Assembly: GCA_030837545.1 (NCBI GenBank)
Contig: JAUPKI010000006.1
Span: forward strand, 4,665-68,664
DNA: 64,000 bases
Direction: 5' to 3'
Source of the DNA: Thermodesulfobacteriota bacterium
Lineage (GTDB): Bacteria; Desulfobacterota; DSM-4660; Desulfatiglandales; Desulfatiglandaceae
Below, in pieces: positions 18,751-60,799 of this stretch (position 1 is its first letter; each line of letters begins with the position of its first letter). Both the position numbers and the translations under genes were made by a program. The notes under the pieces are model-generated. The model was given only the letters and a program-made list of their open reading frames with translations. It did no database searches and was not told the origin of the DNA.

Positions 18751-18760
18751 CCCCAGTTCT

Positions 18761-45534: not shown

Positions 45535-45597
45535 GGATTCAGGGATTCAGGAATTTAGGGATTTAGGAATTCAGGGATTTAGGGATTGAAGGATTTT
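45532..45597 (+). repeat. degenerate tandem AGGGATTY word repeats (about 8 units) starting at the rbr stop codon
   Basis: Read directly: tagggattcagggattcaggaatttagggatttaggaattcagggatttagggattgaaggattt. Confidence 0.8.
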
Positions 45598-45726
45598 TGC
45601 GGGAGGAATCCTGGGTTGCTGCTATGCCGGACGGAAAAATGGTGCGGCTTGCATTTGGAGACCGGTTCGCGTAGATTTAAGGTGGAGATCACCGCTGATT
45701 AACCTATTTATTGAGGAGGTAACGAC

Positions 45727-46101
45727 ATGGCACAGAAGTTAGAGGTTTACAAGTGTGAAGTATGCGGGAATATCGTGGAGGTCGTTCACGGGGGCAAAGG
45801 AGAATTGGTGTGCTGCGGCAAGCCAATGGTGCTTCAGAAGGAAAATACCGTGGACGCTGCCAAGGAAAAACATGTTCCTGTGGTCGAAAAGGCCGCTGAT
45901 GGACTCAAGGTGAAGGTGGGGAATGTGGCCCACCCCATGGAGGAGAAGCACTTTATTGAATGGATAGAGATCATTGCTGACGGAAAGGCCTATCGCCAGT
46001 TTCTCAACCCGGGCGAGGCGCCGGAGGCCTTGTTCGGGCTCAGCGCCGGCCAGATCACGGCCCGGGCCTATTGCAACATCCACGGTCTCTGGAAAGGATA
46101 G
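45727..46101 (+). CDS. dfx: desulfoferrodoxin (2Fe superoxide reductase)
   Basis: 124 aa. N-terminal desulforedoxin motif [13 protein letters not shown]...LVCCGKPM and SOR centre II motifs ([22 protein letters not shown]). Confidence 0.95.
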
Positions 46102-46154
46102 TCTGGCCCACCCGGAATGGCTGAGTGGGTTTTTGCGAGCGACAGGAGAATGAC

Positions 46155-46625
46155 ATGTTATCGAGCAAGATGGACAACCTGTTGGTCAATTTGGCGAAAA
46201 TTGAACGAGGTATTTCCAGGATTTACGAATACCTTTCCAAACAGGAGGCCTTCACGCCCCCTGTGAGGCGTTTCTGGAAAGCTATCATGGAAGAAGAAGA
46301 AGTACACGAGAAGATCTTCAAGGATATCCGTGAAAGGGCCAGGGCCGACGATTCATTTGAGATTGAGATCGGCACGGATCTGGATGAGCTGAAGGCCTTT
46401 GTTGAAAAACTGAACGTGCTCCTTTTGGATATAAAAAAGTCGAATGTCTCTGAGTCCGAGGCCTATTCGTTTGGCGCAACCATAGAGGCTGAAATCGACG
46501 AGGCGAATTTTTTGAAGAGGGTTAAAACCAAGGATCCCGAAATGTCTAAAATGCTCAATCGGATCGATTCGGGGACCCAGAAGCATCGGGTGATGATGGT
46601 CAATTATTTACGAGGCATAAGTTAG
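46155..46625 (+). CDS. ferritin-like / rubrerythrin-fold protein of unknown function
   Basis: About 156 aa from MLSSKMDNLL. All-helical, with one ExxH (EEEEVHEK) and conserved Glu positions, so only a partial diiron ligand set. The track start at 46125 precedes a weak hairpin and is unlikely. Confidence 0.6.
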   Translation: MLSSKMDNLLVNLAKIERGISRIYEYLSKQEAFTPPVRRFWKAIMEEEEVHEKIFKDIRERARADDSFEIEIGTDLDELKAFVEKLNVLLLDIKKSNVSESEAYSFGATIEAEIDEANFLKRVKTKDPEMSKMLNRIDSGTQKHRVMMVNYLRGIS

Positions 46626-46754
46626 CCTTCCCGGATTTGATGCAGACGAACAGACGAGAGTCACCGTCGGCCCTCGGACTCGATCCTCGGGGGCGTGAAT
46701 CAGGACCGCGGCAGGCAGGCCTCCCTAACCAGATCGAAAAGGAGGTAGGTCGAA

Positions 46755-46907
46755 ATGGCAGAGTGGAAGTGTAAGGAATGCGGGTATACCGTCAAAGAGG
46801 ATGTGCCGCCAGAGATATGTCCCATCTGCAAGAAAAAATGCGAATTTGTCGATACAACCTGCTATATACCGGACTGCGGCAAAACCGGTCAGGACCCACG
46901 GCTTTAG
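46755..46907 (+). CDS. small rubredoxin-like zinc-ribbon protein (50 aa; below the ORF-track cutoff)
   Basis: My own translation: MAEWKCKECGYTVKEDVPPEICPICKKKCEFVDTTCYIPDCGKTGQDPRL*. AAGGAGG lies 8 nt upstream. The CxxC...CxxC knuckles resemble the rubrerythrin C-terminal domain. Confidence 0.65.
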   Translation: MAEWKCKECGYTVKEDVPPEICPICKKKCEFVDTTCYIPDCGKTGQDPRL

Positions 46908-46936
46908 CAGGACTCAAAAAGGAAGGAGGCTTCAAT

Positions 46937-47119
46937 ATGTCAAAAAGGAAATACCGTGTCAGGGCCGAATGCCCCCAGTGTGCGTGTGGGGATGTCAGTT
47001 TTCTGGGCCCCGAGAAACTGCGGGAGAAGTTCATCGGGGACGAAAAGGAGATCGATATCCTTTGTCCCCTCTGCGGAACCAAACATAAAGGAATTGTCGA
47101 AGAGGTTAAAGACGAATAG
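46937..47119 (+). CDS. small Cys-rich zinc-ribbon-like protein (60 aa)
   Basis: MSKRKYRVRAECPQCACGDV...ILCPLCGTKHKG. GGAAGGAGG lies 7 nt upstream. Internal start within track ORF 46778..47119. Confidence 0.6.
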   Translation: MSKRKYRVRAECPQCACGDVSFLGPEKLREKFIGDEKEIDILCPLCGTKHKGIVEEVKDE

Positions 47120-47131
47120 GAGGAGAGGCAA

Positions 47132-47572
47132 ATGGCAAAGGCATTGATTGTCTATGCATCAAGGACCGGTTCAACCCAGAAGATTGCCGACCTAATCGCC
47201 GAAGGCATTCGCATCAGCGGAAGAGAGGCTACGGTCGCTAACGTCACCGGGGTCAAGAAGGTGGAAGACCTGCAAGGCTATGACGCATACGTCTTCGGGT
47301 CTGCAACCTACCACGGAGAGATGATGCAAGGCATGAAAACCATGCTCTTCCTGGCGGAGAAGACGGGCCTTGAAGGAAAGGTGGGGGGCTCTTTCGGCGC
47401 CTTTGGATGGAGCGGCGAGGCCCCGGGACGCATCTTCGATACGATGAAGAACGTTCTGAACATGAAAATGGTGGCAGGGCCGTTGAGGCTCAAATCCGCT
47501 TCACTGGGGGGCGGTATTCAAATGGCCCAGGATTATGGGCGTGACATCTACAAAAAGATGGCCTCATCTTAG
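47132..47572 (+). CDS. flavodoxin family protein
   Basis: 146 aa. Starts ALIVYASRTGSTQKIA (FMN phosphate loop) and contains GSATYHGEM and FGAFGWSGEA. Confidence 0.9.
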   Translation: MAKALIVYASRTGSTQKIADLIAEGIRISGREATVANVTGVKKVEDLQGYDAYVFGSATYHGEMMQGMKTMLFLAEKTGLEGKVGGSFGAFGWSGEAPGRIFDTMKNVLNMKMVAGPLRLKSASLGGGIQMAQDYGRDIYKKMASS

Positions 47573-47612
47573 GCCTCTCACTGGATGATGATCATCAGAA
47601 AGGAGTGGCGCC

Positions 47613-47801
47613 ATGACGACGACACCGCAGCACTGCCCCGGATGGGAGCAATTTAAAAACCTGAAGACATTTACCTGTAAATGCCCCAATTGTGGAAAAG
47701 AGAAAGAGATTTTTTCAGATGAGTTTAACAAGCCGCACATCTGTTCCGGATGTGGAAAAGAGATCGATTTTACCCAGTGTACGTTGGATTCAGGGAAATA
47801 G
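47613..47801 (+). CDS. small Cys-rich protein (62 aa; CP..., CKCPNCG, CSGCG)
   Basis: ORF with an AGGAG-containing upstream region. Two zinc-ribbon knuckles. No family recognised. Confidence 0.55.
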
Positions 47802-47812
47802 GAGACAACATC

Positions 47813-47974
47813 ATGGATAAATATGTCTGTTCGGTATGCGGGTATGTCTATGACCCGGAGCAAGGAGACCCGGATAACGGCATCGCCGCCGGGACGAAAT
47901 TCGAGGACCTCCCGGATGACTGGGTCTGTCCGGTCTGCGGGGCTGACAAAGAACTGTTTGAGAAAGAATCGTAA
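47813..47974 (+). CDS. rubredoxin
   Basis: 53 aa: [51 protein letters not shown]. Canonical rubredoxin. Internal start of track ORF 47750..47974. Confidence 0.95.
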
Positions 47975-47995
47975 GGCAACAGATAAGGGAGAGGA

Positions 47996-48445
47996 ATGGA
48001 CCAGGACAGCATTCTTGTCCGGTGCGGTCGTTGCGGCACAAAGAACAGGGTCCCCAAGTCCCGACTCAACCAGGGACCGGCATGCGGAAGGTGTAAATCG
48101 CCGCTCTCAGTCGGACAGGGCCTCGACAGACCTGTTGACATCACAGACAACGCGTTTGATTCAGAGGTCCTTTCCGCTGCCGGTCCGGTCCTCGTGGATT
48201 GTTGGGCCCCCTGGTGCGGGCCGTGCCGCATGGTGGGGCCCGTGCTTGAACAACTGGCCCGGGAATATGCAGGTCGGGTCAAGATCGCCAAGCTGAATGT
48301 GGATGACAATCCGCGAATTGCTTCGCGCTATGCCATCCGGAGCGTCCCGACCATGCTCCTCTTTAACAAGGGAGAAATGGTCGACAGCATGGTCGGCGCC
48401 CTTCCCAAGCAAGAGATCGAACGGCGCCTTCGGCCGCTCCTTTGA
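47996..48445 (+). CDS. thioredoxin with N-terminal zinc-finger extension (Trx2/TrxC type)
   Basis: 149 aa. N-terminal CGRCGTKN...CGRCKSPL followed by the WAPWCGPC active site. Confidence 0.93.
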
Positions 48446-48465
48446 AAGGAACAGGGCGTTTGCGT

Positions 48466-48792
48466 ATGGAAAACTCAATCCCTTCCGGCAAGCCCCAATG
48501 CCCCGACTGTGTCCAATGCCAGATGTGCAGCAGGGCCCGATGCCGTATCTGCCGGAAAGGAGATCATGCGACATTATCTCCGCAACCGGGGATCGGCCTT
48601 ACCCACGGGGCGTATCTTCAATGGAAGCGGGAGCGGGACGCGCAGGTGTCTGGCCCACAGGAGCAAAAACGGTCAACATTGAAAGAGTGTAAGTTATTCT
48701 TGTTCCGGACGTTCAATGGCCAGGCATCGACGGGTGGGGTCGTGCGTATTTATCCGCACATTCTGAGCAGTCAGACTCGCCTGTGCGAATGA
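48466..48792 (+). CDS. possible Cys-rich hypothetical protein (uncertain)
   Basis: ORF MENSIPSGKPQCPDCVQCQMCSRARCRICRKGD... It has a weak RBS and its last third runs through the REP-like element, so the end, or the whole ORF, may be spurious. Confidence 0.25.
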   Translation: MENSIPSGKPQCPDCVQCQMCSRARCRICRKGDHATLSPQPGIGLTHGAYLQWKRERDAQVSGPQEQKRSTLKECKLFLFRTFNGQASTGGVVRIYPHILSSQTRLCE

Positions 48793-48806
48793 ATTCGCAC
48801 CTACAG
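48735..48806 (+). repeat. composite REP/BIME-like element (two hairpin units)
   Basis: Sequence gggtcgtgcgtatttatccgcacattctgagcagtcagactcgcctgtgcgaatgaattcgcacctacagg. Its reverse complement aligns almost base for base with 53607..53680. Confidence 0.8.
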
Positions 48807-48857
48807 GCACAGGGCCAACGAAAAAAGGTTAGACTCAAATGGACAACGGGGGGTTGA

Positions 48858-49109
48858 ATGGATCATTCGGTAAAGATGTATTCACTGAGCACCTGCGGCC
48901 ATTGCAAGGCAACGAAGAAGCTCTTGAATGAGTGCCAGGTCCAGTATGAGTTTACGGATGTGGATCTGCTCGAGGGAGAAGAGCGGGCAGCCATACTGGA
49001 AGACGTCAGGAAATGGAACCCAAACTGCTCTTTTCCAACCATTATCATCGGAGAACGGGTCATTGTTGGATACAAGGAAGATGAGATCAGGGAGGCGCTG
49101 GGGCTATGA
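48858..49109 (+). CDS. glutaredoxin-like protein (YruB/NrdH-like, CGHC active site)
   Basis: 83 aa. KMYSLSTCGHCKATKKLL and FPTIIIGERVIVGY. Confidence 0.88.
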   Translation: MDHSVKMYSLSTCGHCKATKKLLNECQVQYEFTDVDLLEGEERAAILEDVRKWNPNCSFPTIIIGERVIVGYKEDEIREALGL

Positions 49110-49432
49110 ACGAGGTGGAAACCCTTTACAAGACATTGAAGACGGCGCAGGAGCCTAAGGGATACCTGTTCAGCACAGACAAGGAAAGAGTCCATGAACT
49201 CCTGGACGGGCTCATCGTCAATAAAAAGCGTTATGGCTATATGTGCTGCCCATGTCGGCTGGCGTCGGGCGATCGAGAAAAGGACCGGGATATCCTCTGC
49301 CCGTGCGTCTACAGGGAAGACGATGTGAAGGAATATGGGAGTTGCTACTGCAACCTCTATGTTTCAAAGGGATGGAACGAGGGGAAGGTCCCCCGTATCT
49401 ATGTCCCCGAAAGACGGCCGTCTCCCTTCTAA
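49106..49432 (+). CDS. ferredoxin:thioredoxin reductase catalytic-subunit-like protein
   Basis: 108 aa. CCPCR...LCPC...GSCYCNLY matches the FTR-beta CPC/CxC [4Fe-4S]-disulfide signature. ATGA overlap with the glutaredoxin-like gene. Confidence 0.88.
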   Translation: MNEVETLYKTLKTAQEPKGYLFSTDKERVHELLDGLIVNKKRYGYMCCPCRLASGDREKDRDILCPCVYREDDVKEYGSCYCNLYVSKGWNEGKVPRIYVPERRPSPF

Positions 49433-49652
49433 TCTAAAAGGCAGAGGCCTCGCGCAGAGGCGCCCAAGACGCGAAGTTTGAAAGGCAGCTTCCGTTGGAA
49501 TGCGGGGACGGATGTATGAACGCGCGTCCGACACAAACAAGCTGTTTTGGCTTTTTGTGTGTCGGGAGGCATGGGAATCAGGCGCCGTGATGTCTCGAAC
49601 ATCGATTGAAAACCCGTCGGAGTCACTCGCCAGCAAGGAAAGGACTGCATAA

Positions 49653-50621
49653 ATGTTCGTGCTTGGATTACAGGGGAGCCCGAGGATCAAAGGGAATACG
49701 GCCCTGTTGCTTTCGGCCTTTCTCGCTGAGGCGGAGCGGCTCGGCGTTCGCACAGAAGTCATTCATGTTGCCAAGAAGAAGATCACTCCATGCCAGGAGT
49801 GCGGCACCTGCGAAAAAAAGGGGTTCTGCCCGATTGACGATGACATGCAGGACATGTATCCGCTTTTTCGACAGGCCGACCTCATCGTCCTGGCGACGCC
49901 GATCTTTTTTTATGGCCCGACGGCCCAGATGAAGGCGGTGATCGACCGGTCCCAGGCCCTCTGGTCTCGAAAATACGCCCTCGGGCTGGAGGATCCCGGC
50001 AGGAAGTGGCGGCAGGGGTTCCTCCTTGCCGTGGGCGCTACCAGGGGAAAGAATCTCTTCGAGGGGACCATTCTGACGGCCAAATACTTTTTTGATGCGG
50101 TCGGGGCACGGTTTGAAGGGAGCCTCGGATACCGTCAGATCGAGCATTTGGGCGCCATACAAACCCATCCCACGGCCCTGAGTGATGCGGCGCAAAAGGC
50201 GAGGGAGCTGGTAACGCCTCTTATGGATAGAAAGAAGATTCTCTTCGTATGCACGGAAAACGCCTGCCGAAGCCAGATGGCTGCGGCCTTTGCCCAGATG
50301 CATGCTGGAGACCGGGTGGAGAGCCTCAGCGCAGGGACGGCGCCGGCAGCGGAGGTCAACCCGATCATGGTCGCGGTGATGGCGGAAAAAGGAGTGGACA
50401 TGGCCTATCGGAGGCCGGCGTCCATAGAGAGCGCCCTTGCCAGCGGAAGGCCGGACCTGGTGGTCTCCATGGGGTGCGTGGATGCCTGCCCTCTGTTCCC
50501 CGGCCTCCCTGTCGAACAATGGGGTCTGGCAGACCCAGCGGACCAGCCGATCTCCTTTATGCGGGAGATGCGGGACGCGGTCGAGAAGCGGGTGTTGAAT
50601 ATGCTGGAAACGATATATTAA
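49653..50621 (+). CDS. fusion protein: iron-sulfur flavoprotein-like NAD(P)H-dependent FMN reductase + low-molecular-weight phosphatase/ArsC-type arsenate reductase
   Basis: 322 aa. N-terminal half has GSPRIKGNT and a compact CQECGTCEKKGFC (CX2CX2CX5C) motif. C-terminal half has ILFVCTENACRSQMA (CX5R P-loop) and SMGCVDACP. Confidence 0.85.
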   Translation: MFVLGLQGSPRIKGNTALLLSAFLAEAERLGVRTEVIHVAKKKITPCQECGTCEKKGFCPIDDDMQDMYPLFRQADLIVLATPIFFYGPTAQMKAVIDRSQALWSRKYALGLEDPGRKWRQGFLLAVGATRGKNLFEGTILTAKYFFDAVGARFEGSLGYRQIEHLGAIQTHPTALSDAAQKARELVTPLMDRKKILFVCTENACRSQMAAAFAQMHAGDRVESLSAGTAPAAEVNPIMVAVMAEKGVDMAYRRPASIESALASGRPDLVVSMGCVDACPLFPGLPVEQWGLADPADQPISFMREMRDAVEKRVLNMLETIY

Positions 50622-50646
50622 CTGTCTCGTAATACTGTTGACATTT

Positions 50647-50712
50647 CCGTCATGCCGGACTCGATCCGGCATCCAGAAGCAGACTGGATTCCGGCTTCCG
50701 CCGGAATGACGG
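50647..50712. repeat. 66-bp palindromic element with two sub-hairpins
   Basis: Arms are ccgtcatgccggactcgatccggcatccag and ctggattccggcttccgccggaatgacgg. Each arm folds on itself (CCGGA...TCCGG; CCGGC...GCCGG). Confidence 0.8.
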
Positions 50713-50773
50713 GGTAAGGACAATTATGAGACTGTTAATAAAACCGATAACTACTTGAAAGGAGAGCGACAAT

Positions 50774-50932
50774 ATGGATAAATGGGTGTGTTCGGTATGC
50801 GGCTATGTGTATGATCCTGCAGATGGCGATCCGGATAACGGGGTCAAACCAGGGACAGCATTTGAGGACCTTCCGGATGACTGGACCTGTCCGGTCTGCG
50901 GCGCAACAAAGGATTTGTTTGGAAAGGAGTAA
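50774..50932 (+). CDS. rubredoxin (52 aa; below the ORF-track cutoff)
   Basis: My own translation: [58 protein letters not shown] upstream. The stop lies 3 nt before the FDP gene ATG. Confidence 0.93.
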
Positions 50933-50935
50933 GAG

Positions 50936-52120
50936 ATGAAACCGGTCGAGATCGCTGAAGGGATTTACTGGGTGGGCGTCATAGACTGGAATATTCGCGA
51001 CTTTCATGGATATTCCACCTATCAGGGAAGCACCTACAACGCCTACCTGATCATGGATGACAAGATCACCCTGATCGATACGGTCAAGAAGCCGTTTGCC
51101 GATGAACTGCTGGCCAATATCGGCGAGATCGTGGACCCGAAGAAGATCGATTATGTCATCAGCAACCACACCGAGATGGATCATTCCGGAGGACTTCCTA
51201 GGGTCATGCACAAGGTTGGAGAGGATAAGCCCCTCTACTGTTCCAAGATGGGGCAGAAGAACCTCTCAAGGCATTTCGCCCAGGCATGGAATTATCGGCC
51301 GGTGGAGGATGGGGGGCAACTCAACCTGGGCAAAAGGACCCTGACGTTCATGGAGACTCGAATGCTCCACTGGCCGGACAGCATGTTTACCTATGTGAAC
51401 GGAGAGGGCATCCTCTTCTCCAGCGATGGGTTTGGCCAGCACTATGCAGGGCTGGAGCGGTTTGACGACCAGGTAGGGGAAGCCATCATGCCCCATGCCA
51501 AGAAGTATTTCGCCAATATCCTGCTCCTGTACGCCCCCCTCATTCTCAAACTGGTGGATAAGGTGACCGAGATGGGCCTATCCATTCGAATGATCTGTCC
51601 TGATCACGGGATCATCTGGCGAACAGACCCTTCGAAGATCATTAAGGCCTATGTGGACTGGAGCGAGCAGAAGCCCAGGAGAAAGGCCGTGGTGGTCTAC
51701 GACACCATGTGGCACAGCACTGAGGCCATGGCCGAGGCCATTGCCAATGCGTTAGGGGAAGAGGGCGTGGATGCCCGACCGCTTCAACTCAGGACCAACC
51801 ACCGAAGCAACGTGATCACCGAGGTTCTGGACGCAGGCGCCGTGGTGGTGGGCTCTCCCACCCTCAACAACGGGCTGTTCCCCACGGTCAGCGATTTTCT
51901 CACCTATATGAAGGGCCTGAAACCCAAGAACAAGATCGGCGCCGCCTTTGGTTCCTACGGCTGGAGCGGCGAGGCGGTTAAGCTGGTCACTAAGGAACTT
52001 GAAGAGATGGGCTTTAGCATCATCGAACCGGGCGTCAGAGTCCAATACGTCCCGGATGACAAGGCCCTGGATGCATGTCGCGAGCTGGCAAAGAAGATCG
52101 CGGCGGCACTGCCGAAATAG
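50936..52120 (+). CDS. flavodiiron protein (rubredoxin:oxygen/NO oxidoreductase, FprA/ROO type)
   Basis: 394 aa. Metallo-beta-lactamase-like domain with the diiron motif HTEMDHSGG and a C-terminal flavodoxin domain (VVVYDTMWHSTE...GSPTLNN). Confidence 0.95.
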   Translation: MKPVEIAEGIYWVGVIDWNIRDFHGYSTYQGSTYNAYLIMDDKITLIDTVKKPFADELLANIGEIVDPKKIDYVISNHTEMDHSGGLPRVMHKVGEDKPLYCSKMGQKNLSRHFAQAWNYRPVEDGGQLNLGKRTLTFMETRMLHWPDSMFTYVNGEGILFSSDGFGQHYAGLERFDDQVGEAIMPHAKKYFANILLLYAPLILKLVDKVTEMGLSIRMICPDHGIIWRTDPSKIIKAYVDWSEQKPRRKAVVVYDTMWHSTEAMAEAIANALGEEGVDARPLQLRTNHRSNVITEVLDAGAVVVGSPTLNNGLFPTVSDFLTYMKGLKPKNKIGAAFGSYGWSGEAVKLVTKELEEMGFSIIEPGVRVQYVPDDKALDACRELAKKIAAALPK

Positions 52121-52122
52121 TA

Positions 52123-52257
52123 GGCGCAAGGCGTGAGGCGCAAGGTGTGGGGCAGGAGGCAAGAGCTGAAAGGTCAAAGCTGAAATCTCAACTAACCGGT
52201 ATCCGCTAACCGGCATCCAGTATCCAGTGTCAAGCATCCAGCAACCCGTATCCAGTT
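52123..52257 (+). repeat. degenerate word repeats (GGCGCAAGG-type, TCAAAGCTGAAA-type, then CATCCAG-type)
   Basis: Read directly between the FDP stop and the cytochrome gene start. Confidence 0.7.
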
Positions 52258-52271
52258 CCGGAGGTGTAAGA

Positions 52272-53573
52272 ATGGAAGAGAAGCGCATTTTTGCATGGAA
52301 GGGCCGAGTTCTGTTGCTGGCGATGATGGGGATGGTGATAATGGCCGCCGGGCAGGTCTTTGCGGAACCACCGCCAAAAACCGAAGACCCATGTATTGTC
52401 TGTCATCTCAAGGCCACGCCTGGTCTGGCGGCCGACTGGCAGGCAAGCCTCCATTCCCAAGAGGGGATCGGCTGTTCCGAGTGTCACGGTGACAAACACC
52501 AGACCAGCAAGGACTCGAACCTCGCCCGGTTACCCGATGAACATGTCTGCGCAGAATGCCATCAGGAGCAGTTTGACCAGTTTGCCAAGGGGAAGCACAA
52601 TCTCGGGTGGAGTTCCTTGAACGCCCTTCCCATCACCCACATGGAGCCGGATATCCTCATGGAAGGGGGAAAGGGATGCGGCGGCTGCCATAACATGGGG
52701 ATCAAGAGCGAGGCCCAGAAAAAAGACCAGTTGGCAAAAGGCTATCGCTACCAGAACAACTCGTGCGATGAGTGCCACACCCGCCACTCCTTCTCCAAGA
52801 AGGAGGCCCAGGATCCCAGGGCCTGCGAGCAGTGTCACATGGGATATGATCACCCCCAGTGGGAAATGTGGAGCAGCTCAAAGCATGGGACCCGCTACTT
52901 TGTGAAGCAGGGAGGCAACCTGCCGCAAAAGGCCCCGGCGCCCACGTGTCAGCTTTGTCACCTGCCAAACGGGACCCACGAAAACCGGACCGCCTGGGGC
53001 TTTCTGGGCGTGCGCCTGCCGTTGCCTGAAGACAAGCAATGGGCCGCCGATCGGGTGACCATTCTCAAGGCCTTAGGTGTTCTGGATCCGGAAACCGGCA
53101 AGCCCACGCCTCGGCTTGAGGCGGTCAAGACCCTTGATCTGGCCCGTCTGACCGAGGAGGCCTGGAAGACCGAGCGGGAGGCCATGGTCAAGCGGTGTAC
53201 GGCCTGTCATGCAGAGCAGTATGCCCGCCGGCAGCTTGAAATGGCCGATGAGATGATGAAACATGCGGACCGGCTGATGGCCCAGGGGATCGAAACTGTG
53301 GCTGGGCTCTACAAGGACGGCACTATCAAAAAGCCGGATCACTATGCCTTCGCCTATCCTGACTTTCTCTACTTCAAGCAGACCGGCGGTTCCTACATCG
53401 ATCAGGTCCTGTTTCGGATGTATATGAAGTACCGTATGCGCGCCTACCAGGGCCTCTTCCATGTCAATCCGGATTATGCCTACTGGTACGGCTGGGCTGC
53501 CATGACCAAGTCCCTTGGCGAGATCAAAGAACTGGCACAAGCCATGCGGGCGACGCACAAGCCCGCCAAGTAA
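52272..53573 (+). CDS. periplasmic octaheme c-type cytochrome, hydroxylamine oxidoreductase (HAO)-like family
   Basis: 433 aa from MEEKRIF (GGAGG upstream). Signal peptide ...MAAGQVFA. Eight CxxCH motifs: CIVCH, CSECH, CAECH, CGGCH, CDECH, CEQCH, CQLCH, CTACH. The spacing and the WSSSKHG motif resemble HAO-family proteins. Confidence 0.85.
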   Translation: MEEKRIFAWKGRVLLLAMMGMVIMAAGQVFAEPPPKTEDPCIVCHLKATPGLAADWQASLHSQEGIGCSECHGDKHQTSKDSNLARLPDEHVCAECHQEQFDQFAKGKHNLGWSSLNALPITHMEPDILMEGGKGCGGCHNMGIKSEAQKKDQLAKGYRYQNNSCDECHTRHSFSKKEAQDPRACEQCHMGYDHPQWEMWSSSKHGTRYFVKQGGNLPQKAPAPTCQLCHLPNGTHENRTAWGFLGVRLPLPEDKQWAADRVTILKALGVLDPETGKPTPRLEAVKTLDLARLTEEAWKTEREAMVKRCTACHAEQYARRQLEMADEMMKHADRLMAQGIETVAGLYKDGTIKKPDHYAFAYPDFLYFKQTGGSYIDQVLFRMYMKYRMRAYQGLFHVNPDYAYWYGWAAMTKSLGEIKELAQAMRATHKPAK

Positions 53574-53606
53574 GACATTTGGTGCAGCCTTTTTTCGTTG
53601 GCTATC

Positions 53607-53680
53607 CCCGTAGGTGCGAATTCATTCGCACAGCGTGGGCCTAACTGCTCTGAATGTGCGGATGAATCTGCACCTACCAG
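53607..53680 (-). repeat. composite REP/BIME-like element, inverted copy of 48735..48806
   Basis: Sequence cccgtaggtgcgaattcattcgcacagcgtgggcctaactgctctgaatgtgcggatgaatctgcacctaccag. Confidence 0.8.
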
Positions 53681-53785
53681 CCCCCGGCGCCTGGTTATTA
53701 GAGGGTCCGAACAACAAACATTACACAGAAAACATTTTCATGAGGTCGGCCACATGAGATTCGCTGATGATGAGGGCGTTCAGGG

Positions 53786-53980
53786 ATGAGGCAGGTCCCG
53801 GTCATTGATATCCGCGAGTGCTCGGATTGCGGGACGTGCCTGGAACTCTGTCCCGCTGTTTTCAGGAGAAATGATGTGTCCGGGTTCATTGAAATCCTGG
53901 AACTTCCCGAATACCCTGAAGATGAGATTCGGGAGGCCATCAGTTGCTGTCCCAGAGATTGTATAACCTGGGAGGAATGA
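53786..53980 (+). CDS. small ferredoxin (single [3Fe-4S]/[4Fe-4S] cluster type)
   Basis: 64 aa. CSDCGTCLELCP ... CCPRDCI. Confidence 0.85.
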   Translation: MRQVPVIDIRECSDCGTCLELCPAVFRRNDVSGFIEILELPEYPEDEIREAISCCPRDCITWEE

Positions 53981-54018
53981 GAGGTGAGGGATGCGACCGA
54001 GAGCGGGGGGAGAGTGAC

Positions 54019-54957
54019 ATGGAGATAGGAATGATCGGTCTGGGACGGATGGGGATGAATATGGCCAAACGTCTCATGATCGGCGGCCACCGGGTGGTGG
54101 CCTATAACCGGACACCCCGAAAGACAGATATTCTGGCGCGGGAGGGGGCTGTCGCCGCCTATTCCCTCGCAGAGTTGGTCGAGAACCTGCCGCCGGCCCG
54201 CGTTGTATGGATCATGCTGCCCGCAGGTCAACCTGTGGACGACCACCTGGATCAGCTCAGAGAGATCCTCTCCCCCGGAGATGTCGTCGTTGATGGGGGA
54301 AACACCTACTACAAAGACGACCTCCGCAGGCGGCCCCTCCTTTCGGAGAAGGGGATCTCTCTGGTGGATGTGGGCGTGAGCGGCGGCATTTGGGGGCTCG
54401 AAAACGGTTACTGCCTGACTGCGGGGGGACCGGCCGATTGTTGCAGGGAAATTGAACCGGTCTTCAAGACCCTTGCGCCTCCGGGCGGCTATCTCTACTG
54501 CGGGGGCACAGGCGCGGGCCACTTTGTCAAAATGGTCCATAACGGCATCGAATACGGGATGATGCAGGCCTTTGGCGAGGGGTTTGAGATCCTTGAGGCC
54601 TCCCCCTATGCGGGCTCGCTGGACCTGGCAGAGGTGGCACGGGTGTGGAATAACGGGAGCGTCATCCGATCGTGGCTCCTGGAGCTGGCCCAGGACCTGT
54701 TCTCAAGAGATGGAGGTCTCACGGATATAGAAGGATATATCGAGGACTCGGGAGAAGGGCGATGGGCTGTTCAGCAGGCGATAGAGACAGGGGTGGCCGC
54801 GCCGGTCATGGCCCTTTCCCTGATCCGCCGGTTGCGCTCACGGAACCAGGCGCCCTTTTCCGACAGGGTCGTTACCGCCCTCAGGAGAGAATTCGGGGGT
54901 CATTCGGTCCAACCGGCGTCATCTGATGAGAGGGAACCCAATGAAGCCGGAAGATGA
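54019..54957 (+). CDS. gnd: 6-phosphogluconate dehydrogenase, decarboxylating (short form)
   Basis: About 312 aa from MEIGMIGLGRMGMNMA (Rossmann motif). Contains GGNTYYKD, VSGGIWG and GAGHFVKMVHNGIEYG. Confidence 0.92.
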   Translation: MEIGMIGLGRMGMNMAKRLMIGGHRVVAYNRTPRKTDILAREGAVAAYSLAELVENLPPARVVWIMLPAGQPVDDHLDQLREILSPGDVVVDGGNTYYKDDLRRRPLLSEKGISLVDVGVSGGIWGLENGYCLTAGGPADCCREIEPVFKTLAPPGGYLYCGGTGAGHFVKMVHNGIEYGMMQAFGEGFEILEASPYAGSLDLAEVARVWNNGSVIRSWLLELAQDLFSRDGGLTDIEGYIEDSGEGRWAVQQAIETGVAAPVMALSLIRRLRSRNQAPFSDRVVTALRREFGGHSVQPASSDEREPNEAGR

Positions 54958-56521
54958 ACAGGCCGATCCCGGGTTGCTGGACTTGGGGACCGCTACGACC
55001 GGGACCGAGCGCTCTATGGCAACGTCCATCGGAGAAAAGGACCCCGAGTCCTTCACCCTTGTGATTATTGGGGCCTCCGGGGACCTCACGGAACGGAAAA
55101 TCGTCCCTGCCCTCTTTGATCTCTACCGCAAGGGGGAGATCCCGGCCCCGTTCCGGGTGGTGGGATGCGCACGGACCCATCTGGACGACCAGGGATTCAG
55201 AGAAAAGATGCGGAAGGCCCTGGGGAAAAAGACCCGTTCGAGCGATGCCGAATGGAAGGCCTTTGCCGAAAGGCTCCACTACTGGTCCATCGACTATTCG
55301 GATGAGTCCTCCTTTGTCGCATTGGGAACATTTCTGAACAGTGGGGTTCAGGGCCAGGGCATGGCGCAGAACCGGATCTTTTATCTGGCCATCCCCCCGT
55401 CCCTCTGTGAGTTGACCGTCGGGATGATCGGACGGTCGGGTCTTGCGGCCGAGGGGACAGAAGGATATGGCTGGTCCAGAATCGTGATTGAAAAGCCGTT
55501 CGGCCGTGATCTGAAAAGCGCTGCAGCCTTAGACAGGAGTCTTCATGAACACTTCAACGAGCATCAGATCTTCAGGATGGATCACTATCTGGCAAAGGAG
55601 ACAGTCCAGAATATCCTGATGTTCCGTTTTGCCAATGCCATCTTTGAGCCCATATGGAATCGACGATATGTGGACAGCGTCACGATCCGGGCGCTGGAGA
55701 CCCTGGGGGTCGAACACAGGGCGGGGTATTATGAACAGGCCGGGGTCCTGCGGGACATGTTCCAGAATCACATGATGCAGCTTCTGGCCCTCATGGCCAT
55801 GGACCCTCCCTCGGCCTTTGAGGCGGACAGGGTCCGGGATGAGAAGGTCAGGGTATATCGAAGCCTCAGGCCGTTTCCGGTGGGAAGGCTGAACGACTAT
55901 CTGATTCTGGGCCAATACGGGCCCGGCGTGGTGCGGGGTAAAGAGGTCCCGGGTTATCGGGAGGAACCGGGTGTCAGACCCACTTCGCTGATCCCGACCT
56001 TTGCATCCATGAGGGTCTTTATTGATAACTGGCGATGGCAGGGCACCCCCTTTTATCTCACTTCAGGGAAGCGGATGGGAGAAAAGGTCACCAATATCAC
56101 CATCCAGTTTAAGGAGGTCCCCCACTCCGTATTCCGAAATGTTCTTGGGGAGCACATCGCCGTCAACTGTCTGACCATGGGGATCTATCCGGACGAGCGG
56201 ATATCTCTCATGTTTCAGACCAAACATCCCGGCCCCCGGGTGTCTCTCACGCCGGTCACCATGGATTTCCGGTATGCCCAGGGCCAGGAAGACGCCCTGA
56301 TGGAGGCATACGAAAAGCTGTTGCTGGACTGCATGCTGGGGGACCAGATGCTGTTTTTGCGTCAGGACAGCGTGGAACTCTGCTGGTCGTTCCTGACGCC
56401 GATCCTGAATGCCTGTGAGACGTGCAGCGACCGGTCGGAAATGCTCCTGTTCTACGAATCCGGGACCCTCGACGCCGAGGCTGTGGAGCGACTGAACCGG
56501 ACCCGGATGGTGGGCATCTGA
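54941..56521 (+). CDS. zwf: glucose-6-phosphate 1-dehydrogenase
   Basis: Motifs GASGDLTERK, RMDHYLAKE and EKPFG. The start is uncertain (54926, 54941 or 55016). Confidence 0.93.
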   Translation: MKPEDEQADPGLLDLGTATTGTERSMATSIGEKDPESFTLVIIGASGDLTERKIVPALFDLYRKGEIPAPFRVVGCARTHLDDQGFREKMRKALGKKTRSSDAEWKAFAERLHYWSIDYSDESSFVALGTFLNSGVQGQGMAQNRIFYLAIPPSLCELTVGMIGRSGLAAEGTEGYGWSRIVIEKPFGRDLKSAAALDRSLHEHFNEHQIFRMDHYLAKETVQNILMFRFANAIFEPIWNRRYVDSVTIRALETLGVEHRAGYYEQAGVLRDMFQNHMMQLLALMAMDPPSAFEADRVRDEKVRVYRSLRPFPVGRLNDYLILGQYGPGVVRGKEVPGYREEPGVRPTSLIPTFASMRVFIDNWRWQGTPFYLTSGKRMGEKVTNITIQFKEVPHSVFRNVLGEHIAVNCLTMGIYPDERISLMFQTKHPGPRVSLTPVTMDFRYAQGQEDALMEAYEKLLLDCMLGDQMLFLRQDSVELCWSFLTPILNACETCSDRSEMLLFYESGTLDAEAVERLNRTRMVGI

Positions 56522-56580
56522 TGGCTCATGGCTGATAGCTCATGGACAGAGCAGCTTATCAGCTCAACAGCTTATGAACT
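56521..56580 (+). repeat. degenerate word repeats (GCTCATGG / AGCTTATSA type) after the zwf stop
   Basis: Read directly: atggctcatggctgatagctcatggacagagcagcttatcagctcaacagcttatgaac. Confidence 0.6.
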
Positions 56581-56621
56581 TACCATCTTTTTTGCCTGGC
56601 AGTCAGAGGACCCGAACCTCT

Positions 56622-57149
56622 ATGGCCGACCCTCACGAACATATGCTCGGCCCTGCCCAATTCCTGGTGGAAAACGTGGACCTGTTGCCAAGGGGGCGGG
56701 CCCTGGATCTGGCCATGGGGTACGGCCGCAATGCAATCTTCCTGGCCCGGGCGGGTTTTGAGGTGGAAGGGATTGATATTTCACCAGAGGCCACGGCCGG
56801 GGCCTTGAAGGCCGCAAATGAGGCCGGGGCTCGCCTGAGCGTTCGCGTGGCCGATCTGGAGGACGGCTACGTGATTGAACCGGGGGCCTATGATGTGATC
56901 ATCTGCTTCAATTATCTCCATCGGGCCTTGATCCCTGAGATAAGGAAAGGCCTTCGCAGCCGCGGGATGGTGGTGTACGAAACCTTCATCGTGGATCAGG
57001 CCCGATTTGGCAGGCCCAGGAATACGGATCACCTGCTTAAGCATAATGAACTGCTGGATCTGTTTCGTGATTTCCGCTGTCTCCGGTATCATGAGGGGTT
57101 GATGGAGACCCACAGGGCCGTTGCCGGCATCATAGCGGAAAAACCCTGA
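56622..57149 (+). CDS. class I SAM-dependent methyltransferase (TehB-like)
   Basis: About 175 aa from MADPHEH. SAM motif I ALDLAMGYGRNAIFLARAGFEVEGIDIS and post-I/II pattern YDVIICFNYLHR. The track ORF starts at 56574. Confidence 0.8.
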   Translation: MADPHEHMLGPAQFLVENVDLLPRGRALDLAMGYGRNAIFLARAGFEVEGIDISPEATAGALKAANEAGARLSVRVADLEDGYVIEPGAYDVIICFNYLHRALIPEIRKGLRSRGMVVYETFIVDQARFGRPRNTDHLLKHNELLDLFRDFRCLRYHEGLMETHRAVAGIIAEKP

Positions 57150-57265
57150 TGCAGAATAACCGCAACCCATCCCGCCAATATAGGCGGGACTCACACAAAG
57201 ACACGAAGACCCAACGTTTTTATAACCACATGCATTTGTTCCTAAAACACAGGAGGTAAGCAACC

Positions 57266-58099
57266 ATGCAGTGGAAACAGTTCATTACGCCCGTGGCCAG
57301 TCTGGATGCAGATGCGGCCAGGGCATTTATAGGCGACCATAAGGAAGGGACCTATACCCTTCTCGATGTTCGACAACCCGGGGAGTACGAAAAAGCCCGG
57401 ATCCCCGGGGCCAGACTGGTGCCTCTGCCCGAACTCGCTGATCGGCTCGAGGAACTGGACCCGGACCGGCCTGTCATCGCCTACTGAGCGGCCGGCGGCC
57501 GCAGCCGTGCTGCTGCGCAGCTTCTTGCCGGCAAGGGCTTCAGGGAGGTCTACAACCTCAAGGGGGGCATCAGGGCCTGGAACGGTCTGACAGCAGTGGG
57601 GCCTGCCGAGATGGGGATGCCTTTCCTAAGAGGCGATGAGACCACGCAGGAGATCATCGTCCTCGCATACGGGATGGAAGAGGGATTGAGAGGCTTTTAC
57701 ACCGCTGTCAGCGAACGGACAGATGACCCGGATGTGGCCGGCCTTGCCGATAAGCTGTCGGAGATAGAGGAACGCCACAAGGAACGTCTCTTCGCCCTCT
57801 ACGTGTCCATGCATTCCACCATTGCCCTTCGAGAGACCTTTGAATCCGATATTGTGACCGGGATCATGGAAGGTGGTTTCACCACAGAGGAGTTTATGGA
57901 TCATAACAGGGATGCCATGACGACCGTGCCCGATCTCCTCAGTATCGCCATGATGCTGGAGACCCAGGCCCTGGACCTCTACATGAGATACTCTGAAAAG
58001 ATCCAGGACGCGCCTGGTAAGGGCGTGCTCTATGATCTGGCAGAGGAAGAAAAGGGGCATCTGACCCGCTTGGGCCGCTTGATGGAAAAAAAGGTCTGA
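57266..58099 (+). CDS. candidate selenoprotein: rhodanese domain (TGA at the catalytic-Cys position, 57485..57487) fused to a diiron ferritin-like/rubrerythrin-like domain
   Basis: Track ORFs 57266..57487 and 57596..58099 share one frame with only this TGA between them. Read-through gives ...DRPVIAY-U-AAGGRSRAAAQLLAGKGFREVYNLKGGIRAWNG... followed by E / ExxH / E / ExxH helices. A SECIS-like hairpin follows the TGA. Confidence 0.65.
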
Positions 58100-58689
58100 T
58101 GGCAACCTATACCGGCATCAATCATCTGGCCCTGGCCACCCGAGACATGGATATGACGATCCGTTTCTGGCGGGACCTACTCGGCATGCGGCTGGTGGCA
58201 GGGCTTGGACGGCCGGGATACCGGCATTACTTCTTTGAGATATCGGGCCATGATATGATCGCCTTCTTCGAGTGGCCCGATTGCGAAAAAATCCCTGAAA
58301 AGGATCATGGGGTCCCTGCCAAGGGTCCCTTTGCATTCGACCACGTCTCATTTGAGGTGAAGACGGATGAAGACCTGTGGGAATTGAAGGCGAAGTTTGA
58401 GGCCGCCGACATCTGGGTCTCCGAGGTGATGGATCACGGTTTCATCCATTCCATCTATGCCTTTGATCCCAACCATATTCCGATTGAGTTCAGCGTCCCG
58501 GTGCCGGGCGTGGACATCCGGAACCATCCAAAAATGAAGGACAGAGGACCGACGACCCTGTCCCGGGAAGGGCCTGACCCCCAACCCGGCATCTGGCCGA
58601 CAGGACCGGGGGCGGCGCCGCTCGAAGACCGCAGGGTCTATCCTGGCGAGGGGATGGTCCTGGTCGAAAATGATGAGGATGAATCCTGA
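58099..58689 (+). CDS. VOC (glyoxalase/bleomycin resistance/dioxygenase) family protein
   Basis: 196 aa. Starts INHLALATRDMDMTIRFWRDLLGMRL, with a paired beta-alpha-beta-beta-beta module pattern. ATGA-type overlap with the upstream gene. Confidence 0.85.
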   Translation: MATYTGINHLALATRDMDMTIRFWRDLLGMRLVAGLGRPGYRHYFFEISGHDMIAFFEWPDCEKIPEKDHGVPAKGPFAFDHVSFEVKTDEDLWELKAKFEAADIWVSEVMDHGFIHSIYAFDPNHIPIEFSVPVPGVDIRNHPKMKDRGPTTLSREGPDPQPGIWPTGPGAAPLEDRRVYPGEGMVLVENDEDES

Positions 58690-58704: not shown

Positions 58705-59484
58705 ATGGCGTCCGTGAAACAGGCCCCGAGGTCAAGATTGAAAACCAGCGCTGCAGATTCCTCGACATTCAGTGGCCGTCAACTGAAAACCAGGGTCCGC
58801 GACATCCTGACCTCCCTGGAGATGGCACGGGCACTGGATGCCTTAGGTCAGATGCCTCCCCGTCGGGTGATCAATCCCCTGTTTTCCCTCCTCTACCAGG
58901 GGGATGACCCGCTCAGGTGGGCCGCCATTACGGCCATGGGCCGAGTCGTGGCGCGGCTTGCCGATGAAGACAGGGAGGCGGCCAGGGTCGTCATGCGACG
59001 GCTCATGTGGAACCTCAACGACGAATCCGGGGGAATCGGATGGGGGTCGCCAGAGGCCATGGGGGAGATTCTGGCCTGCCACGAGGGCCTTGCCGAAGAA
59101 TATGCCCCTATACTGATATCCTACGCAAGGGAGGACGGCAATTATCTGGAATACGAGATGCTTCAGCGGGGCCTCCTCTGGGGGATTGCGCGGCTTGCCC
59201 AGGCAAGGCCCCGCTTGGTTCAGGATGCGGTCCCGCATTTGATGGCCTGCCTTAAATCCGGAGACCCGGTTGTCAGGGGGATGGCTGCATCCGTCATGGG
59301 CCTGCTCGAGGCCCAGGCGGCCCGCAAGGCACTTGAGCTATTGACGGCGGACGATGCCGAATTTCAAACATGGGCGGGTTACAGGCATGTCAAACGACGG
59401 GTGAAGGATATGGCGAAGACGGCGATCGAGAGGCTGTCAGCTTCAGAGAGTAACGGGTCAAACAGGGAAGGAGGGTTATCATGA
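58705..59484 (+). CDS. HEAT-repeat-like helical protein of unknown function
   Basis: 259 aa. All-helical repeats (DPLRWAAITAMGRV, DPVVRGMAASVMGLL). Confidence 0.65.
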   Translation: MASVKQAPRSRLKTSAADSSTFSGRQLKTRVRDILTSLEMARALDALGQMPPRRVINPLFSLLYQGDDPLRWAAITAMGRVVARLADEDREAARVVMRRLMWNLNDESGGIGWGSPEAMGEILACHEGLAEEYAPILISYAREDGNYLEYEMLQRGLLWGIARLAQARPRLVQDAVPHLMACLKSGDPVVRGMAASVMGLLEAQAARKALELLTADDAEFQTWAGYRHVKRRVKDMAKTAIERLSASESNGSNREGGLS

Positions 59485-59990
59485 ATGTACGGTATGCCAA
59501 TCCCTACGTCATCGGCGTGCTGCTGGGGTTTATCCTGTTGTTTTCCTTTTACACCATGGGCAGAGGGGTCGGCTCCTCCGAAACCTTTTCCAGGATTGCA
59601 GCCGCGGGGGTCGATCTGACGGCCCCGCAGCACGCAGAGGAGGGGCACTATTTTTCGAAGTACCTATCCAAAAAGCGTTCTCCTCTCATGGCTTGGCTGG
59701 TTTTTCTGACTTTAGGGGCAGGACTCGGGGGCCTGTTTTCGGCCTTTATCTCCCATAGAATCAAGGGAGAGGTGGTGCGGGGACCTTTGATGGGAGTCTC
59801 TTCCCGCTTGTGGCTTGCACTGCTCGGCGGAATACTCTCCGGGTTTGCCGCCAGGCTGGCCAGGGGGTGCACCAGCGGACAGGCCCTGACCGGGGCATCC
59901 GAGCTGGCCTTCGGGAGCTGGGTCTTCATGTTCTCCATCTTTGCCGGGGCATACGCGACGGCATACTTCTTCAGAAAGGAGTGGCTGTGA
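59481..59990 (+). CDS. YeeE/YedE family sulfur(/selenium)-compound transporter component
   Basis: 169-aa membrane protein with the conserved motif LARGCTSGQALTG. 4-nt overlap with the upstream gene. Confidence 0.85.
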   Translation: MNVRYANPYVIGVLLGFILLFSFYTMGRGVGSSETFSRIAAAGVDLTAPQHAEEGHYFSKYLSKKRSPLMAWLVFLTLGAGLGGLFSAFISHRIKGEVVRGPLMGVSSRLWLALLGGILSGFAARLARGCTSGQALTGASELAFGSWVFMFSIFAGAYATAYFFRKEWL

Positions 59991-60799
59991 TGGGACCGTT
60001 GTATAAGTTCGGATGGTTTGACTTTGCCTACAGCCTGCAGATCGCAGGACTCATCGGCTTCTTTTTCGGATTTGTCCTGGAAAGGGCCGGGTTTGGAGAT
60101 GCAAGGAAGCTGACGGCCATCTTTTATCTGAGAGACTTTGCCGTACTAAAGGTCATGTTCACCGCCATTGTGGTGTGCATGATAGGCCTTTTATATTTTT
60201 CCGTCTTCGGGTGGATCGATCTCAGCCGAGTCTATATCCTCCCCACCTACATCTGGCCGCAGACCGTGGGCGGCCTTGTCATGGGCGTCGGGTTTGTCAT
60301 GGGAGGATACTGCCCCACCACCTCCGTGGTGGCCACGGTCTCGGCCAAGCTGGACGGTCTCGTCTTTATCGGGGGGATGATCCTGGGCTCATTCATCTTT
60401 GCTGAACTCTTCCCCCTGCTCAAGGGCTTCTATGAAGCTGGTTCCATGGGCGCTGTCCGGCTTTCGGATGTCCTGAAGATCAACGCCGGGCTGATCGCCC
60501 TCTTCGTATGCCTGATGGCGGTTGGGGCCTACTGGGTCGTTGAAAAGGTGGAACAGAGGTTTGGAGACAGGGGGACCCTTCCAGGCGGTTCCAGAAGGAT
60601 CAAGGGGGCGGCCGCCGCCCTCCTCATCGTCCTTGGCCTGATTCTGGCTATTGTCAATCCGGACCGGATTGCTGCCAAACGGGCGACGGCGTCGCCGGTT
60701 GAAGCGGTGAAAAAGGGTGAAGCCACGGAGCCCATAGCCCCTAAAGCAGAAAAACCCGCCTCAATCCATTTCAAGATTGTGGAAGATGAAGGATGCTGA
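59990..60799 (+). CDS. YeeE/YedE family transporter component (second half-size paralogue) with extended C-terminal tail
   Basis: About 269 aa from MGPLYKF (TGATG overlap with the previous gene). Motif MGGYCPTTS. The track ORF start at 59810 lies inside the previous gene. Confidence 0.85.
   Translation: MGPLYKFGWFDFAYSLQIAGLIGFFFGFVLERAGFGDARKLTAIFYLRDFAVLKVMFTAIVVCMIGLLYFSVFGWIDLSRVYILPTYIWPQTVGGLVMGVGFVMGGYCPTTSVVATVSAKLDGLVFIGGMILGSFIFAELFPLLKGFYEAGSMGAVRLSDVLKINAGLIALFVCLMAVGAYWVVEKVEQRFGDRGTLPGGSRRIKGAAAALLIVLGLILAIVNPDRIAAKRATASPVEAVKKGEATEPIAPKAEKPASIHFKIVEDEGC

Follow-up and report, generated by a model that had tools for sequence, protein, structure and literature searches.

Does an in-frame TGA codon in the middle of a predicted rhodanese gene of a Thermodesulfobacteriota bacterium (family Desulfatiglandaceae) terminate translation, or is it decoded as selenocysteine (Sec)? 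This question is raised by the locus at 57266..58099 on the forward (+) strand of a 64,000-nucleotide (nt) stretch of contig JAUPKI010000006.1 (assembly GCA_030837545.1, positions 4,665 to 68,664), which is hereafter called the window. Two open reading frames (ORFs) listed for this region, 57266..57487 and 57596..58099, lie in one common frame, and translation of 57266..58099 confirmed the statement of a first-pass annotation, made from the sequence alone, that the only internal stop is the TGA at 57485-57487, i.e., codon 74. Reading through this codon yields the product ...DRPVIAY-[TGA]-AAGGRSRAAAQLLAGKGF..., in which the TGA occupies the position of the catalytic Cys of the rhodanese domain. 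We conclude, with a probability of about 0.9, that 57266..58099 constitutes one gene, encoding a selenoprotein of 277 residues in which UGA74 is read as Sec. The grounds for this assignment are the pairing of TGA with Cys among homologs, the conservation of the UGA, the coding signal downstream of it and the use of the standard genetic code; computational assignments of selenoprotein genes usually rely on such evidence.

The predicted gene consists of 277 codons and a terminal TGA in a single frame and encodes a fusion of a rhodanese domain with a ferritin-like diiron domain, with the putative Sec at residue 74. A Shine-Dalgarno sequence, AGGAGG at 57251..57256 (+), is evident in the sequence, 9 nt before the ATG at 57266, and the genuine TGA stop at 58097..58099 (+) overlaps the start codon (ATG, 58099-58101) of the next gene, which belongs to the VOC/glyoxalase family, in a TGATG arrangement. 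There is no start codon in the 36 codons between the internal TGA and 57596, and the GTG at 57596, which gene callers take as the start of the downstream fragment, is not preceded by a comparable Shine-Dalgarno sequence. In automatic gene calls, the locus appears either as two proteins, a 'rhodanese' of 73 residues and a 'rubrerythrin' of 160-200 residues, or with the TGA translated as Trp. The proposal of one 277-codon selenoprotein gene instead of two genes is backed by this lack of downstream start signals, by the open and conserved frame 3' of the TGA and by the Cys/TGA pairing among homologs.

A protein search with the read-through product, in which Cys was substituted at residue 74, yielded 1957 homologs, and nearly all of the best ones are ~277 residues long and contain the same two Pfam domains. 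Among the best 120 of these homologs, alignment column 74 is Cys in 114, as expected if the TGA replaces the catalytic Cys of the rhodanese loop. The six exceptions include four gene calls that start just after the Cys position (e.g., 'MAGGRSR...') and two proteins with a Trp. The DNA behind all six (loci L001-L008, with protein identity to the window ranging from 99% down to 57%) contains an in-frame TGA at codon 74, and the 203 codons 3' of the UGA are intact in these loci. Thus, the short homologs are calls restarted after an in-frame TGA. The two Trp-containing proteins, P0014 (L007:527) and P0110 (L008:696), are ENA metagenome calls in which the TGA is read as 'W'; they were apparently produced with genetic code 4 or 25, which gives a full-length but wrong protein.

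The genome scan covered one genome per GTDB species, and 80 loci were taken from ~584 genome hits. Almost all of these loci come from metagenome-assembled genomes (MAGs) of Desulfobacterota, namely Desulfobacteraceae, Desulfatiglandales, Desulfomonilaceae and Syntrophales. Adding the metagenome loci and the window gives a set of 91 homologous loci in which codon 74 is TGA in 62 and TGC or TGT in 29. Full-length homologs with a Cys aligned at the position of the predicted Sec, a check suggested in the first-pass annotation, are therefore present among genomic loci as well as among annotated proteins. On the evidence of these alignments, the correspondence between TGA and Cys at column 74 is far beyond chance. 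The TGA forms span ~50-99% protein identity and are free of additional stops and frameshifts. At 78% identity to the window protein, P0001 is the closest Cys form, and the closest genome locus (L011), at 82% identity, is a TGA form. In the 57 nt (19 codons) that follow the UGA, variability among the TGA forms at codon positions 1, 2 and 3 is 0.14, 0.08 and 0.47, respectively, as is typical of translated sequence under purifying selection.

In a rough neighbor-joining tree, there are at least 17 switches between Sec and Cys, and the Cys forms are scattered over ~17 separate lineages. Sec is the predominant state in the closest relatives sampled (62 of 91 loci) and appears to be ancestral, given that this rough tree has Sec at its root. 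In OY969108.1, two Cys-form paralogs of the fusion are encoded (L071 at 1.39 Mb and L077 at 2.95 Mb) that are identical around the active site.

The domain architecture of the read-through product provides a context for the recoded position. The rhodanese domain (PF00581; 57341..57583, +; residues 26-106; E=6.5e-22, 78.3 bits against a cut-off of 22.2) spans the UGA, and the UGA codon (57485..57487, +) aligns with the invariant Cys of the Cys-form homologs. The predicted active-site loop, U74-A-A-G-G-R-S80, is of the short sulfurtransferase type, with G77, G78, R79 and S80 invariant in 83 homologs, and the best NCBIfam matches of the N-terminal half are GlpE/PspE-type single-domain models (COG0607 type). 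The C-terminal half is a ferritin-like, rubrerythrin-type four-helix bundle (PF02915; 57635..58096, +; residues 124-277; 41.8 bits against a cut-off of 22.8), with the Pfam Rubrerythrin match starting at residue 129 (E=1.7e-10). The complete E/ExxH/E/ExxH pattern noticed in this half at first pass was borne out: the six putative diiron ligands, E138 (57677-57679), E168 (57767-57769), H171 (57776-57778), E232 (57959-57961), E262 (58049-58051) and H265 (58058-58060), all encoded on the + strand, are invariant in alignments of 25 and of 83 homologs. Pfam detects no C-terminal rubredoxin-like Cys4 domain in the fusion protein, which ends at the fourth helix.

Structural comparisons are consistent with these assignments. 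Profile matches in the PDB are to rhodanese domains and, for the diiron half, to TM1526 (1vjx), 2fzf and encapsulin-associated ferritin-like proteins. In an AlphaFold2 model of the 78%-identical Cys form P0001 (predicted local distance difference test score, pLDDT, 88.4; predicted template modeling score, pTM, 0.88), both domains are visible: the rhodanese half adopts an alpha/beta fold, with pLDDT ~90-97 across most of the domain, and long helices are predicted at residues 127-151, 155-182, 221-245 and 249-276. A Foldseek comparison of the model with the PDB matched only the rhodanese half (best TMq 0.34) and returned no solved structure with the rhodanese plus diiron two-domain architecture. 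The best structural matches include 5ve3, 3nta, 8a56, 6pfz and 3icr, in which rhodanese domains are fused to persulfide-handling redox enzymes.

Directly downstream of the UGA, a hairpin similar to a selenocysteine insertion sequence (SECIS) can be formed at 57500..57517 (+), with the stem CGCAGC/GCUGCG (57500-57505 paired with 57512-57517) and the loop CGUGCU (57506-57511). It is separated from the UGA by a spacer of 12 nt, its apical loop contains G23 and U24 (57507-57508, with the U of UGA counted as 1), and the hairpin alone folds at -8.8 kcal/mol. In SECIS elements of the E. coli fdhF type, G23 and U24, numbered from the U of UGA, are located in the apical loop. The element described here resembles this type in being a hairpin within the ORF, directly 3' of the UGA, with an 11-12 nt spacer and G23/U24 in the loop. 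It differs from fdhF in that there is no bulged U comparable to U17, the loop comprises 6 nt instead of 4 nt, and two alternative stems, shifted by ~1.5 nt, are represented in the family.

These alternatives define the two main hairpin classes among the 59 unique TGA forms, both found in the same place and with GU in the loop. Class A, which includes the window, pairs columns 16-21 with 28-33 (again counted from the U of UGA; CGCAGC/GCUGCG, loop CGUGCU), and class B, found in a Desulfomonile-like clade, pairs columns 18-23 with 29-34 (GAGCCG/CGGCUC, loop AGUUG); a further small variant has the stem CGC-A-GCC/GGC-G-GCG. Each sequence was scored by the better of registers A and B. All six pairs are formed in 42 of the unique TGA forms and five in the other 17, none having four or fewer, so that the conservation of the hairpin in orthologs, proposed at first pass as a check, holds with at least 5 of 6 pairs in 59 of 59 unique TGA forms. 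The 28 unique Cys forms are distributed differently (6/6 pairs in 3, 5/6 in 6, 4/6 in 17 and at most 3/6 in 2); the difference is significant by the Mann-Whitney test (p=2.6e-11), with the reservation that the sequences are related and that the registers were defined on the TGA forms. When the ~17 Cys lineages of the neighbor-joining tree are counted, at least one pair is lost in 14, no more than 4 of 6 pairs remain in 10, and the hairpin is perfect in 3. Three Cys forms that are nested inside TGA clades and have a perfect class A hairpin, L009:961 (TGT), L024:4923 (TGT) and L033:2074 (TGC), appear to have changed from Sec to Cys recently, before any decay of the SECIS.

Against synonymous-codon nulls, the z-score of the local fold is lower in Sec forms (-1.50) than in Cys forms (-0.86; p=5e-4). 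In the class A stem, 87% of the cells pair, and pair 18:31 shows compensatory changes (C-G in 39 sequences, U-G in 3, A-U in 1 and U-A in 1) to an extent reached by 1 of 500 shuffles. RNAalifold, when applied to 44 TGA forms, independently returns the inner stem. Per-column synonymous-codon entropy does not separate Sec from Cys forms, owing to the presence of two different stems among the former. Taken at the level of the family, the data support the inner hairpin as a feature that is common to the family and tied to the TGA state. An outer helix that, according to the first-pass annotation, could enclose this hairpin was rejected as a conserved feature: its two GCCGGC segments are indeed present at 57491-57496 and 57527-57532, but only 67% of the cells pair across the family and shuffled sequences behave alike (329/500). 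Its origin lies in the codon pairs for two Ala-Gly dipeptides in the clade of the window.

With regard to the genetic code, TGA is the commonest stop in the window, where it ends 22 of the 43 long ORFs, this gene among them, and the code is therefore standard. Moreover, UGA serves as the stop codon 612 nt downstream on the same mRNA, so that recoding at codon 74 would depend on local context. The target gene is the only clean candidate for an in-frame TGA within the window. A generic search for further genes of this kind in 1.2 Mb of loci returned mostly off-frame matches between homologous contigs and a single convincing case, a peroxiredoxin gene (AhpC-TSA, E=8e-41) at L015:8150-8875 (+) in the Desulfobacterales MAG CSMAG_33, with an in-frame TGA at 8408. 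The UGA is located at the position of the peroxidatic Cys (FYPGDFTFV-U-ATEL), and a hairpin of textbook form, GGCGGC-AGUU-GCCGCC, starts 13 nt downstream. A TGA form of the rhodanese-diiron gene follows ~1.8 kb downstream on this contig, and we consider the peroxiredoxin gene a convincing candidate for a second classical selenoprotein, which would provide indirect support for Sec decoding among carriers of the TGA form. Deltaproteobacteria are rich in selenoproteins, with 'rhodanese-related sulfurtransferase' as one of the most abundant families (PMC1976440). An Rfam scan of the window produced no matches, although an in-ORF element is not expected in Rfam.

Several observations weigh against the assignment of Sec. 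No signature motifs of SelA, SelB or SelD are present in the 64-kb window, ARAGORN finds no tRNA-Sec there (the window contains no tRNA) or in the flanks of 60 related loci, and none of selA, selB, selD and tRNA-Sec occurs in ~1 Mb of flanks around related loci; the Sec-decoding trait of the source organism is accordingly putative. The hairpin predicted at first pass stands in its stem, loop and G23/U24 coordinates and is conserved in all 59 unique TGA forms, but it is not significant in the window alone: the 61-nt fold after the UGA has z=+0.76 against dinucleotide shuffles, and the local 27-nt fold has p ~0.14 against synonymous-codon resampling. A test of the minimum free energy (MFE) over 54 nt is weak as well (p ~0.02-0.03). 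Such whole-segment MFE tests are uninformative or weak because a GC-rich coding segment folds anyway and the MFE structure takes up competing GCGGCC/GGCCGC pairings; the hairpin of the window does not rise above chance because the GGRSRAAAQ peptide, encoded in GC-rich codons, folds readily. In the family comparison, the choice of registers favors the TGA forms over the Cys forms, and five or six pairs persist in 9 of the 28 unique Cys forms because GC-rich codons for the conserved GGRSRxAAQ peptide are themselves prone to fold. Covariation within each class is thin: a single pair covaries in class A, and the class B stem is simply conserved and shows no covariation. Finally, the biochemical role is deduced only from domain content and from variable gene neighborhoods.

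Three other explanations of the TGA have to be considered in the light of these points. The UGA might be read through without Sec, by near-cognate insertion of Trp or Cys or under a locally reassigned code, with the hairpin as a by-product of the conserved peptide. The weak separation of single-sequence hairpins from codon-shuffled controls, the Cys forms that keep most of the stem and the indirect case for the Sec machinery are all compatible with this possibility. Nevertheless, we consider it improbable, given that the prevalence of TGA stops in the window, including the one that ends this very gene, implies the standard code, that the recoded site is a redox-active or nucleophilic catalytic Cys, the hallmark of Sec/Cys pairs, and that the hairpin follows the TGA state over ~17 independent switches; in addition, the Desulfobacterota are rich in selenoproteins (PMC1976440), and the putative Sec-peroxiredoxin shares a contig with a TGA form. 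A true stop, with a 73-residue rhodanese fragment followed by a separate diiron protein or with the whole locus being a decaying pseudogene, would agree with the way all automatic gene callers split the locus and with the failure to see any Sec machinery in the window. This explanation is very improbable because a product of 73 residues would be missing the catalytic loop together with the final third of the rhodanese fold, the 36 codons from the TGA to the first possible start (57596) offer neither a start codon nor a Shine-Dalgarno sequence, and the 19 codons scored after the TGA display coding periodicity in the TGA forms. Furthermore, 62 loci with 50-99% protein identity share this TGA, none of them with a further stop or frameshift, and a pseudogene would not hold 203 downstream codons open and conserved across so many species. 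The third possibility is that the TGA reflects an error of sequencing or assembly, or else that TGC or TGT was mutated to a nonsense codon in this strain. It has some appeal inasmuch as the assembly of the window is not necessarily error-free (a probable frameshift is present in the aspartyl-tRNA synthetase gene at ~5830). It can be practically dismissed because the same TGA appears in independent JGI, ENA, Logan and NCBI assemblies that differ in assemblers and samples, and recurrence of an error at one codon in 62 loci is not expected. The single selenoprotein gene thus remains by far the best-supported interpretation of the locus.

Selenoproteins with Sec in place of the rhodanese Cys have been cataloged since 2004-2005 (PMC13188914, PMC9312934, PMC1088965), and the remark of the first-pass annotation that such sulfurtransferases are already among the listed prokaryotic selenoproteins is accurate (PMC13188914). 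A 2026 review distinguishes five rhodanese selenoprotein forms, two of which, forms 2 and 4, have the UxxG motif (PMC13188914). Form 2 (COG0607/PF00581, UxxG) fits the N-terminal half of the protein described here, with its U-A-A-G sequence and single rhodanese domain, whereas form 4 (COG2897, tandem rhodanese) does not (PMC13188914). The published descriptions of form 2 name the rhodanese domain only, with no rubrerythrin or ferritin-like fusion; its representative, MBM9537886.1, may belong to the present fusion family or may be a single-domain relative. The cataloged rhodanese selenoproteins share with the present family their hosts among Desulfobacterota/Deltaproteobacteria (symbionts; PMC1976440) and the in-ORF hairpin just after the UGA. 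The literature searched contains no mention of a rhodanese-rubrerythrin fusion linked to selenium or as a characterized protein. Two other NCBIfam families show weak, domain-level likeness, namely NF041203 (rhodanese_LYCAU, CxU; 35.9 against a cut-off of 115) and NF045694 (TsoB rhodanese/DsbD fusion; 17 against a cut-off of 805), both well below the thresholds for membership. The TsoB fusion has a different architecture, and in the LYCAU family, Sec is located two residues after the Cys (C-A-U) instead of at the Cys position itself, as predicted here. Thus, Sec-rhodanese is an already known kind of bacterial selenoprotein, and the diiron fusion may be an undescribed variant of it.

The solved rhodanese fusions, including the persulfide dioxygenase-rhodanese 5ve3, the persulfide reductases 3nta, 8a56 and 6pfz, and the CoADR-RHD protein 3icr, follow the same logic, i.e., a sulfane-sulfur carrier tethered to a redox domain. 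In contrast to these proteins, the present family has a diiron four-helix bundle as partner domain in place of a metallo-beta-lactamase or flavoprotein, the rhodanese domain is N-terminal, and the nucleophile is predicted to be Sec. The diiron half has the same bundle and the same E, ExxH, E, ExxH ligands as rubrerythrin/erythrin-type ferritin-like proteins (PF02915; TM1526 1vjx, 2fzf). Unlike canonical rubrerythrin, which has a C-terminal rubredoxin domain (as does the rubrerythrin encoded in the window at 44962-45534), the fusion lacks this domain and has a rhodanese domain attached instead.

Under the proposed mechanism, SelB with Sec-tRNA(Sec) would bind the hairpin at 57500-57517 as the ribosome reaches UGA74, resulting in the insertion of Sec. 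In the protein, a linker joins the putative Sec-rhodanese domain to the rubrerythrin-type bundle with its E/ExxH/E/ExxH site. Sec74 would take up sulfane sulfur (or selenium) as a selenenyl-persulfide, and this intermediate might be handed to the diiron centre, or residue 74 might be redox-cycled by it. Such coupling between Sec74 and the diiron site is suggested by analogy with the solved fusions in which a rhodanese domain is attached to a persulfide dioxygenase or a persulfide reductase. The enzyme would then serve to handle or detoxify reactive sulfur or oxygen species, a role that fits the genomic setting described below. A more specific, and distinctly speculative, proposal is that the family represents an undescribed class of selenoenzymes, a dedicated system of anaerobic Desulfobacterota that couples sulfane-sulfur (or selenium) transfer by Sec74 to peroxide- or oxygen-dependent diiron chemistry, for example, oxidation or detoxification of persulfide or perselenide.

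The value of these observations lies in the correction of annotation, in the well-sampled natural series of Sec/Cys switches with SECIS decay and in an uncharacterized architecture; no new principle is revealed. A widespread protein of Desulfobacterota is mis-described in databases, and its family is systematically missed by annotation. Because every pipeline applied to these contigs either splits the gene or translates the TGA as Trp, counts of the selenoproteome of this phylum are underestimated. With ~17 Sec/Cys switches among 90 sequences and decay of the hairpin after loss of the UGA, the family constitutes a clean natural system that is suited to the study of gain, remodeling (two alternative stems) and loss of SECIS elements embedded in coding sequence. 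For the rhodanese-diiron architecture, neither a solved structure nor a description of its function is available, and the existence of natural Cys forms makes biochemical work possible without Sec expression systems.

The gene order in the clade of the window comprises G6PD, a TehB-like methyltransferase, the fusion gene, the VOC/glyoxalase gene, a gene for a HEAT-repeat protein and genes for two YeeE/YedE-type sulfur-transport proteins. In the window, the TehB-like S-adenosylmethionine-dependent methyltransferase is encoded upstream at 56574-57149 (+), and the two YeeE/YedE-type (Sulf_transp) membrane proteins downstream at 59481-60799 (+). TehB methylates tellurite and selenite, and YedE is linked to selenium metabolism. 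These flanking genes hint at selenium or sulfur trafficking, in the window's clade only, given that the TehB/VOC/HEAT/YeeE context is specific to it. Directly upstream of the fusion gene lies an island of oxidative-stress and reductant-supply genes (44962-56521, +), which encodes a rubrerythrin with RUBY_RBDX (44962-45534), desulfoferrodoxin (45727), flavodoxin (47132), an FprA-type flavodiiron protein (50936), a multiheme cytochrome (52227), 6PGD (53944) and G6PD (54926), all on the + strand, along with rubredoxin and ferredoxin. The order of genes in this island is partly retained in L002 and L005. The island also contains an ORF for a 166-residue protein (46125-46625, +) that has no Pfam match at E<=0.001.

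Clustering of gene neighborhoods across the family identified no obligate partner of the fusion gene. The neighborhoods vary and include genes for FA-hydroxylase-like, SagB/nitroreductase-like, ferritin-like, P-type ATPase and NADH-dehydrogenase-like proteins.

Two further loci in the window deserve mention. The aspartyl-tRNA synthetase (AspRS) gene at 5032-6850 (-), recognized by eye and not by a family search, is split between overlapping ORFs that differ in frame (5786-6850 and 5032-5829), probably due to a frameshift near 5830 that could be an assembly indel, a real pseudogene or a recoding site. At 17194-18792 (+), two long Arg/Ser/Pro-rich ORFs lie opposite genes of a branched-chain amino-acid ATP-binding cassette (ABC) transporter, which were likewise assigned by eye; these ORFs are probably spurious shadow ORFs.

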